The notes under the pieces: model-generated
Databases searched by the model: none
Told to the model about the DNA's origin: nothing
The model's input: the letters and a program-made list of their open reading frames with translations, nothing else
Made by a program: the position numbers and the translations under genes
In this document: one piece after another, positions 23,688 to 25,594 of the stretch
How positions within the stretch are numbered: position 1 is the first letter of the stretch
Layout: each line of letters begins with the position of its first letter
From: Escherichia coli
GTDB lineage: Bacteria; Pseudomonadota; Gammaproteobacteria; Enterobacterales; Enterobacteriaceae
Assembly: GCF_030384885.1 (NCBI RefSeq)
Contig: NZ_CP128613.1
DNA length: 64,000 bases
Reading direction: 5' to 3' (one strand)

Positions 23688-23951
23688 TCAGGCGCGGATT
23701 TGTTGTGATGTGGTTGTGCTCTGGCAGATGGCAACGTGTGCGACGTCCACCAGTTTATTTAACTGACTAAACAGTAAGTCGACCGACCGTGGGCTGGCAA
23801 CGGTCAATTCGATATTTATATTTTGTGCATCGCTGGCGGCGGCCATATTCATTGAGCAGACGTGGAAACCACGATGACGCACCACGCGTAAAACACGTTC
23901 TAAGGTTTCCGGATTGAAGCGAGCCGATACATTGACCTGATGTTGCATCAT
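23688..23951 (-). CDS. ilvM: acetolactate synthase II small subunit
   Basis: 87-aa [32 protein letters not shown]...; overlaps the ilvG stop by 4 nt. Confidence 0.95.
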
Positions 23952-25594
23952 GATAATTTCTCCAACATTTCTGAATTACTGGCGCCAGGCGGCACCAGCG
24001 GCCAGACGTTCTCAAGTTCGTCGATTGAGACATGAAGCAGGTATGGCCCATCACTGTTCAGCATGGTGTCGAGTGCCGCTTCAACCTGGTCTTTACGGGT
24101 GATGTGTTGGCCAGGGATGCCGAAGGCGCTGGCTAACATGAGGAAATCGGGATTATCGGTAAGGGTGGTTTCGCTATATCGTTCCTGGAAAAACAGTTGC
24201 TGCCATTGTCGAACCATCCCTAACCGTTGGTTATCGAGTAAGACGATTTTCAACGGTAACTGCTTGCGTTTTACGGTGCCCAGCTCTTGCACATTCATCA
24301 TGAAAGAGCCGTCACCGGAGATACAGACGACGGTATCGTTCGGTCGCGCAACTTGCGCACCAACCGCTGCCGGTAAACCAAACCCCATGGTGCCTAATCC
24401 GCTTGAAGTGATGAAATTTTCCGGGCGAGTGTGGACGATGTGCTGCGCGGCCCACATCTGGTGCTGCCCTACATCTGTGGTTACTACACAATCTTCAGGT
24501 TTACGATCCGACAGTTGTTTTAACAACAACGGCGCGTAGATAGCATCACCGGGATGGTTGTAACGCCATGCATGTTCATCACGCAGCTGCGCGCAGTGTT
24601 GCTGCCAGTCATTGATATTCAACGGCTGTCGTAATGCCGGTAACAGAGCATTTAAATCACCCTGCAATGCCACATGCGCCTGACGCAGCTTGTTCATTTC
24701 TGCCGGGTCGATATCCATATGGATAACACTGGCGTGTGGTGCGAAGGTGTTCAGTTTGCCAGTTACCCGGTCATCAAAACGTGCACCCACGGCGATCAAC
24801 AAGTCACATTCCTGCACCGCAAAGTTCGCCGCTTTGGTGCCGTGCATCCCCAGCATGCCCAGATAGTACGGATAATCCGCATCAACTGCGCCAAGTCCTT
24901 TCAGCGTGCAGGTGGCAGGCATTTTTGTGGCAGCGAGAAATTCACGCAAAGCCGAAACTGCCTGCGCCATGCCCACGCCACCGCCAACGTACAGCATCGG
25001 TTTTTGCGCTTTTGCCAGCATCTGACGCGCTTGCTCGACTTCGGTATGTGGGAAAGTCACTTCGTTTTCAACAGTGGTGAACCACGGTTCCAGATCGCCG
25101 CTGGCTAACTGGATATCTTTTGGAATATCGACCAAAACCGGACCAGGACGACCAGAGCTGGCGACATCAAACGCTTCGGCCATGATACGCGGTAACTCTT
25201 CCAGTGATTGCACCAGGAAACTGTGCTTGGTGCAGGCTAACGACAACCCCAGAATATCCACCTCCTGAAATGCGTCAGTGCCGATAAACGGTGCGGATAC
25301 CTGACCGGTGATAGCAACAACGGGGATGGAATCTAACAGCGCGTCCGCAAGCCCGGTTATCAGGTTGGTTGCACCAGGACCAGACGTGGCGATGCAAACG
25401 CCAGTTTTGCCGGTAGCACGGGCATAACCGATAGCCGCCATTGCTGCACCTTGCTCGTGTCGGCACAGCAAGTGTTCCACGCCACCGTCATACAATGCAT
25501 CGTAAACCGGCATAATTGCGCCACCCGGATAACCGAAAACGGTATTCACACCTTGTGCCCGCAACGCATGTACCACCCACTGTGCGCCATTCAT
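23948..25594 (-). CDS. ilvG: acetolactate synthase II large subunit, full-length and uninterrupted
   Basis: Single 548-aa [37 protein letters not shown]... with TPP-enzyme motifs; no frameshift. Confidence 0.9.

Follow-up and report, generated by a model that had tools for sequence, protein, structure and literature searches.

Organisation of the ilv operon in the window

The window (the whole stretch of 64,000 nt that was analysed) carries ilvL, ilvX, ilvG and ilvM on its minus strand. Table 1 lists these genes and their control elements together with the other features that are discussed below. In the ORF listing of the window ilvG forms one ATG-started reading frame of 1647 nt without interruption. 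Its end overlaps the start of ilvM by 4 nt: positions 23948-23951 are tcat on the plus strand and ATGA in the coding direction, with the ATG of ilvM overlapping the TGA of ilvG. An earlier note on this DNA had described ilvG as a single intact ORF coupled to ilvM. Both the description and the coordinates are correct, and we only add the strand (minus), which the note did not give.

Table 1. Positions of the features considered in this study (nt of the window).
Feature	Position	Strand	Description	Basis
yifN	14273..14722	plus	intact 149-codon ORF	
Islet between ilvA and ilvY	17721..19277		1.56 kb, absent from K-12	
ORF of the ilvA-ilvY islet	17727..18116	plus	signal-peptide-like N-terminus	
ORF of the ilvA-ilvY islet	18120..18725	plus		
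ORF of the ilvA-ilvY islet	18732..19205	minus		
ilvM	23688..23951	minus	AHAS II small (ACT-domain) subunit, 87 aa	NF008362, Pfam ACT_5
ilvG	23948..25594	minus	AHAS II catalytic subunit, intact, 548 aa	ORF list, NF006524, Pfam
ATAT at the K-12 frameshift site	24615..24618	minus	ilvG nt 977-980; codons 326-329 read N I N D	alignments
ilvX	25597..25647	minus	16-codon small ORF, ends 2 nt before the ilvG start	identical to K-12 b4669
Attenuator terminator	25678..25709	minus	GC-rich hairpin followed by U8	folding, Rfam RF02744
ilvL	25734..25832	minus	32-aa Ile/Val/Leu-rich leader peptide MTALLRVISLVVISVVVIIIPPCGAALGRGKA	NF007744, Pfam IlvGEDA_leader
oriC	50360..50591		3 mismatches to K-12 in 232 nt	
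Insertion between atpC and glmU	60833..61711		0.9 kb relative to K-12	
ORF of the atpC-glmU insertion	60979..61677	plus	232 aa, hydrophobic	

The small subunit IlvM scored 133.9 bits against its NCBIfam model (cut-off 68), and the same protein record (WP_000983255.1) was common to the matching records of all nine strains that were fetched (2013C-4282 and eight others). For the leader peptide we obtained 81.9 bits (cut-off 59) and no mismatch to K-12; both the IlvM and the IlvL match extend over the full length. Direct folding of the attenuator hairpin gave -23.3 kcal/mol (z = -3.19), and its sequence is identical in the window, K-12, E2348/69 and O157:H7. The Rfam family RF02744 ('Rev39_5p_UTR') matches positions 25614-25903 on the minus strand with 157 bits (gathering threshold 88), and the attenuator lies inside this match. 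A consensus terminator scan of the coding strand did not call the attenuator, presumably owing to the internal C-C mismatch of the hairpin. The small ORF ilvX is also annotated as such in the matching genome. Altogether the 238 nt from the start of ilvL up to the last base ahead of the ilvG ATG (25595-25832), which cover leader, attenuator, ilvX and the ribosome-binding region of ilvG, are 100% identical to K-12. In the matching genome the operon runs ilvL-ilvX-ilvG-ilvM-ilvE-ilvD-ilvA, and leader, attenuator and ilvGMEDA order together give the operon context of AHAS II.

In a global alignment of ilvG from the window with ilvG from MG1655 we observed 94.0% identity; the two genes differ by 96 substitutions and by one gap of 2 nt. 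The MG1655 gene (b4488) is annotated as a pseudogene of 1645 nt. The gap falls on the sequence ATAT: one AT is missing in K-12, whereas both are present in the window. Past the gap K-12 reads AAT CAA TGA and stops at codon 328; in the window the sequence is AAT ATC AAT GAC and the frame remains open to codon 548. The TGA at codon 328 in K-12 is thus due to the loss of one AT; the premature TGA has been placed at ilvG nt 982-984 (PMC8605374). This 2-nt loss is the K-12 frameshift to which the earlier note had referred. The note had also proposed the alignment as a check and had claimed that a K-12-type frameshift is absent from the window, and this is what we found: the frame of ilvG in the window is intact, ATAT and the length of 1647 nt are kept, and only K-12 has a premature stop. 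The window sequence was also searched for a 40-mer with the K-12 junction at its centre, which was not found.

Family membership and predicted function of IlvG

IlvG scored 1072.5 bits against the NCBIfam equivalog model NF006524 (cut-off 738), and its residues 1-547 aligned with positions 1-547 of the 548 positions of the profile. The Pfam domains PF02776, PF00205 and PF02775 (TPP_enzyme_N, TPP_enzyme_M and TPP_enzyme_C) were each matched over their full length. The motifs HEQG (residues 46-49, with E47), GDG (427-429) and RQW (462-464, with W464) are present. They are taken to be cofactor motifs of ThDP enzymes, and the roles of the individual residues are putative here. The closest solved structure was the large subunit IlvB of E. 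coli AHAS I (6LPI, residues 2-544, E = 1.9e-162), and among the PDB matches there was no chain under the name of E. coli AHAS II.

The ratio dN/dS of ilvG (Nei-Gojobori) was 0.03-0.05 in comparison with five alleles, which indicates strong purifying selection on the gene. The valine-insensitive isozyme is AHAS II (PMC8605374, PMC7066862), and for the valine sensitivity of K-12 PMC7066862 gives the same rationale as PMC8605374. Deleting one base of the K-12 stop restored the frame and allowed growth at 1 mg/ml valine (PMC8605374). We infer that the strain would have valine-insensitive AHAS activity and would be valine-resistant.

An open frame could also encode an enzyme that lineage-specific missense changes have made inactive or have altered, and the strain would then still be valine-sensitive. 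There are differences on which such a reading can draw: IlvG differs from the alleles of E. coli sensu stricto at 8-12 residues (Nei-Gojobori nonsynonymous counts), and T184 (A184T) is the only residue unique to the window among the nine IlvG alleles compared. We nevertheless regard an impaired enzyme as very unlikely. Such an enzyme is at odds with the low dN/dS against all five alleles, with a full-length NF006524 score far above the cut-off and intact cofactor motifs, and with the perfect conservation of ilvM and the regulatory region. Intact alleles that are 98-99% identical are moreover found in other clade I strains.

Natural alleles at the frameshift site

We compared the frameshift site with eight natural alleles, from Z0117EC0005, EC42405, E2348/69, WP5-S18-ESBL-09, eco-241, H10407, O157:H7 FRIK944 and O104:H4 C227-11. 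They span 93.7-98.9% identity to ilvG of the window and include another clade I strain (EC42405); for this site clade I is an outgroup of E. coli sensu stricto. All eight have a length of 1647 nt, and at the site they show AAT ATC (A/G)AT GAC, as does the window.

These alleles bear on the idea of a compensated frameshift, in which the gene would have suffered the K-12-type 2-nt deletion and a nearby 2-nt insertion would have restored the frame at the cost of two altered codons, the pattern of valine-resistant K-12 revertants. The junction CAATGAC is indeed common to the window and K-12, with the additional AT of the window 4 nt upstream. Furthermore the window reads NIND, whereas a putative intact version of the protein would read NQYD at this site. 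The NQYD version was absent from every natural genome examined (eight alleles). As the NIND reading is found in all eight, another clade I strain among them, NIND is ancestral and K-12 has simply lost one AT. We therefore reject the compensated frameshift, to which we assign hardly any probability. Judged by these alleles ilvG of the window is unremarkable at the frameshift site, with NIND as the ancestral state.

Frequency of the K-12 lesion

The 40-mer centred on the K-12 junction was placed such that every 28-nt megablast seed was forced to span the junction. It matched 340 of 5,426 complete E. coli genomes, in all cases with 100% identity; this number counts exact 28-mer seeds across the junction and not other routes of ilvG inactivation. 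Rows sampled across the ranking of the 340 were almost all K-12 derivatives. Among the matches listed, the carriers comprise MG1655, DH1, BW25113, XL1-Blue, JM83 and TG1 as well as O16:H48 mouse-gut isolates and transconjugants (genomes of ~4.6 Mb). At this frequency the frameshift can be relied on to mark K-12 derivatives. In the search with the full gene the match spanned 1647 nt in non-K-12 genomes compared to 1645 nt in K-12 derivatives, and ilvG was annotated in 5,425 genomes. An intact ilvG is the norm in E. coli outside the K-12 laboratory lineage. By the junction test ~94% of the complete genomes are not K-12-type and hence an intact ilvG discriminates little: its presence tells only that a genome is not K-12.

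One genome showed a different kind of change. In E. coli NCCP12480 (NZ_CP068680.1), one of only two matching genomes with an ilvG coverage below 80%, the match breaks off at query nt 954. It covers features annotated as 'thiamine pyrophosphate-binding protein' and ilvA, which suggests a natural deletion that fused ilvG to ilvA.

Lineage of the window

The window is 99.96% identical to the genome of 2013C-4282 (NZ_CP027579.1) over 41.6 kb, and chunks of 12.2 kb and 18 kb matched this genome with 100.0% identity. The strain 2013C-4282 (stx1-positive) and EC42405 are among the completely sequenced genomes of Escherichia cryptic clade I, for which the PCR marker gene sits on a putative genomic island (PMC10100065). 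Clade I membership rests here on the near-identity to 2013C-4282, by which the window is cryptic clade I Escherichia, either 2013C-4282 itself or a near-identical isolate. Chunks from both halves of the window returned the same small closest set of ~17 genomes.

Over the 41.6 kb we counted 16 positions that differ from NZ_CP027579.1, all outside the ilv operon. Ten of the 16 are packed into 37 nt of a 16S rRNA gene (33491-33527) and the others are found at 5240, 5948, 14086, 30952, 32972 and 34708. The 16 differences look like rrn copy heterogeneity or a difference between assembly versions, not like strain divergence.

The ilvG gene of the window belongs to a rare haplotype group. Only one genome, that of 2013C-4282, reached an identity of at least 99% over ilvG, and ~13 of 5,426 genomes reached at least 98%, about a dozen of them at 98-98.9%. 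The alleles of E2348/69 and similar strains are 96.7% identical to that of the window, and an identity of 90-95% was found for 3,829 genomes.

Relative to K-12 the window corresponds to the reverse complement of positions 3,913,153-3,974,731 plus the two insertions of Table 1. Gene by gene, the identity to K-12 across the window was 92-99.7%. In the left half it was 92.5% for ilvY, 93.1% for ilvA, 93.8% for rep, 93.8% for rffG and 94.0% for ilvG. Much of the left half (rff/wec-rep-ilv) is 92-96% identical to K-12, with rffG, wecC, rep, ilvC, ilvY, ilvA and ilvD all showing this divergence, and the right half from yieP to atpC (rbs-oriC-atp) is 96.3-100% identical. The same unevenness was visible in the population: for positions 10500-22700 we found 5,312 genomes that are only 90-95% identical to the window, and for positions 35000-53000 all matching genomes were at least 95% identical.

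The origin from clade I accounts both for the 94% identity between ilvG and its K-12 counterpart and for the divergence seen throughout the window. We also considered whether ilvG alone is divergent, as a gene-specific import. This was rejected, given that the whole left half shows 92-96% identity to K-12 and the genome is that of a clade I strain. The earlier note had pointed to a non-K-12 lineage. This is borne out by ilvG and by the range of gene identities, though it understates the case since the strain is clade I. The differences from K-12 in oriC are real, and the strain-specific islets that the note had mentioned elsewhere in the window have their counterpart in two segments that K-12 lacks. 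A laboratory construct or revertant of K-12 with a repaired ilvG can be dismissed outright: ilvG+ derivatives of K-12 do exist (PMC8605374), but here ilvG differs by 96 substitutions, nearly every gene differs from K-12, two islets are present that K-12 is without, and the match to a clade I clinical isolate is 99.96-100%.

Uneven divergence along the operon

The diversity among ten alleles varied strongly along the operon. We obtained π values of 4.9% upstream of the promoter, 0% in ilvL, 0.5% from the attenuator to ilvX, 4.9% in ilvG nt 1-1300, 1.15% in ilvG nt 1301-1647 and 0.42% in ilvM. In comparison with H10407, O157:H7 and O104:H4, dS was 0.31-0.35 for ilvG nt 1-1299, 0.054 for nt 1300-1647 and 0-0.017 for ilvM. 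Species-wide, and with cryptic clade I included, the synonymous divergence is 6- to 20-fold lower from about nt 1300 of ilvG via ilvM into early ilvE. This low-divergence tract extends over ~23343-24328 (the 5' third of ilvE, ilvM and ilvG nt ~1270-1647) with 10 mismatches to K-12 in ~985 nt, and is flanked on both sides by a divergence of 5-6% from K-12. In 3,397 of 5,424 genomes a 613-nt core consisting of the ilvG 3' end and ilvM matches the window with an identity of 99% or more. A second tract surrounds the leader (25554-25883): its 330 nt show no mismatch to K-12 and take in 41 nt at the beginning of ilvG, all of ilvX, the attenuator and ilvL, and ~50 nt upstream. Upstream of it the divergence resumes abruptly, at the π of 4.9% given above.

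There are two possible underlying reasons for the tract around ilvM. It might reflect an unrecognised function at the nucleotide level, for example an RNA structure for the coupling of ilvG, ilvM and ilvE or an extended internal-promoter region, which we consider unlikely. Alternatively, one haplotype could have spread recently through the species in a recombinational sweep. Either way the low-dS tract has no effect on the verdict that ilvG is ordinary and intact.

Other features of the window

The islet between ilvA and ilvY carries three ORFs. Among the matches listed, only 2013C-4282 and 2017-02-2CC covered the whole 12-kb query that includes this islet and other close relatives covered 87% of it; there were also 16 matching places on plasmids. 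Searches of the three ORFs with Pfam and PADLOC returned nothing above threshold, and the sole sub-threshold match was to Tai4 (T6SS amidase immunity; E = 0.0047, 17.9 bits, cut-off 27.1). The hydrophobic ORF in the insertion between atpC and glmU is probably a multi-pass membrane protein. We also found yifN intact. In K-12 it is annotated as a pseudogene of 449 nt, and in the matching genome as a toxin of the PemK/MazF family. After ilvG it is the second K-12 pseudogene of the window that is whole in the clade I strain. All differences from K-12 and all 'strain-specific islets' of this window should be judged against the background of clade I.

Interpretation and comparison with known systems

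Taken together the window almost certainly contains an ordinary, functional and ancestral ilvG, encoding the catalytic subunit of AHAS II, in a canonical ilvLXGMEDA operon of a cryptic clade I strain. This reading is based on the uninterrupted ORF, on family membership and synteny, on a regulatory region identical to that of K-12, on purifying selection and on a frameshift that is rare and restricted to K-12. In the mechanism that we propose, transcription of the operon would be controlled by the leader peptide, which senses Ile, Leu and Val, and by the attenuator. IlvG would be translated to its natural stop, with ilvM translationally coupled through the ATGA overlap. The only mechanistic difference from K-12 would be that ribosomes read through ilvG and the IlvG-IlvM enzyme is made. 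Polarity on ilvMEDA has been attributed to the K-12 frameshift (PMC8605374), and polarity of this type is expected to be absent in the operon of the window. IlvG-IlvM should then provide valine-insensitive synthesis of acetolactate and acetohydroxybutyrate, and growth on minimal medium with valine would be expected.

An intact ilvG is the already known wild-type state of a well-characterised gene. It carries little weight as a discovery. The lesion of K-12 is textbook knowledge, a peculiarity of laboratory strains, and the added value is limited to the attribution to clade I and the population frequency of the lesion.

Among the known systems, the alleles of E2348/69 (WP_001012591.1) and O157:H7 (WP_001012623.1) agree with the window in length (548 aa, 1647 nt), in the reading at the frameshift site, in the ATGA coupling, in an identical IlvM and in leader and attenuator. 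Natural E. coli alleles show 93.7-96.7% DNA identity to the window, and the differences are mostly synonymous, with 8-12 amino-acid differences. K-12 b4488 shares the locus, the flanking genes and the 238-nt leader stretch with the window, but it has lost an AT at nt 977-980, stops at the TGA of codon 328, makes no AHAS II and is valine-sensitive. AHAS I IlvB (6LPI) belongs to the same ThDP/FAD-dependent AHAS fold family as IlvG, although it is part of a different isozyme, which is inhibited by valine through IlvN. The ilvG of the clade I strain EC42405 (WP_039020271.1) has 98.1% DNA identity and the R322 variant in common with the window. Its ilvG 3' end and ilvM are identical to those of the window, whereas the first 1300 nt of ilvG carry 31 substitutions, three of which are amino-acid changes.
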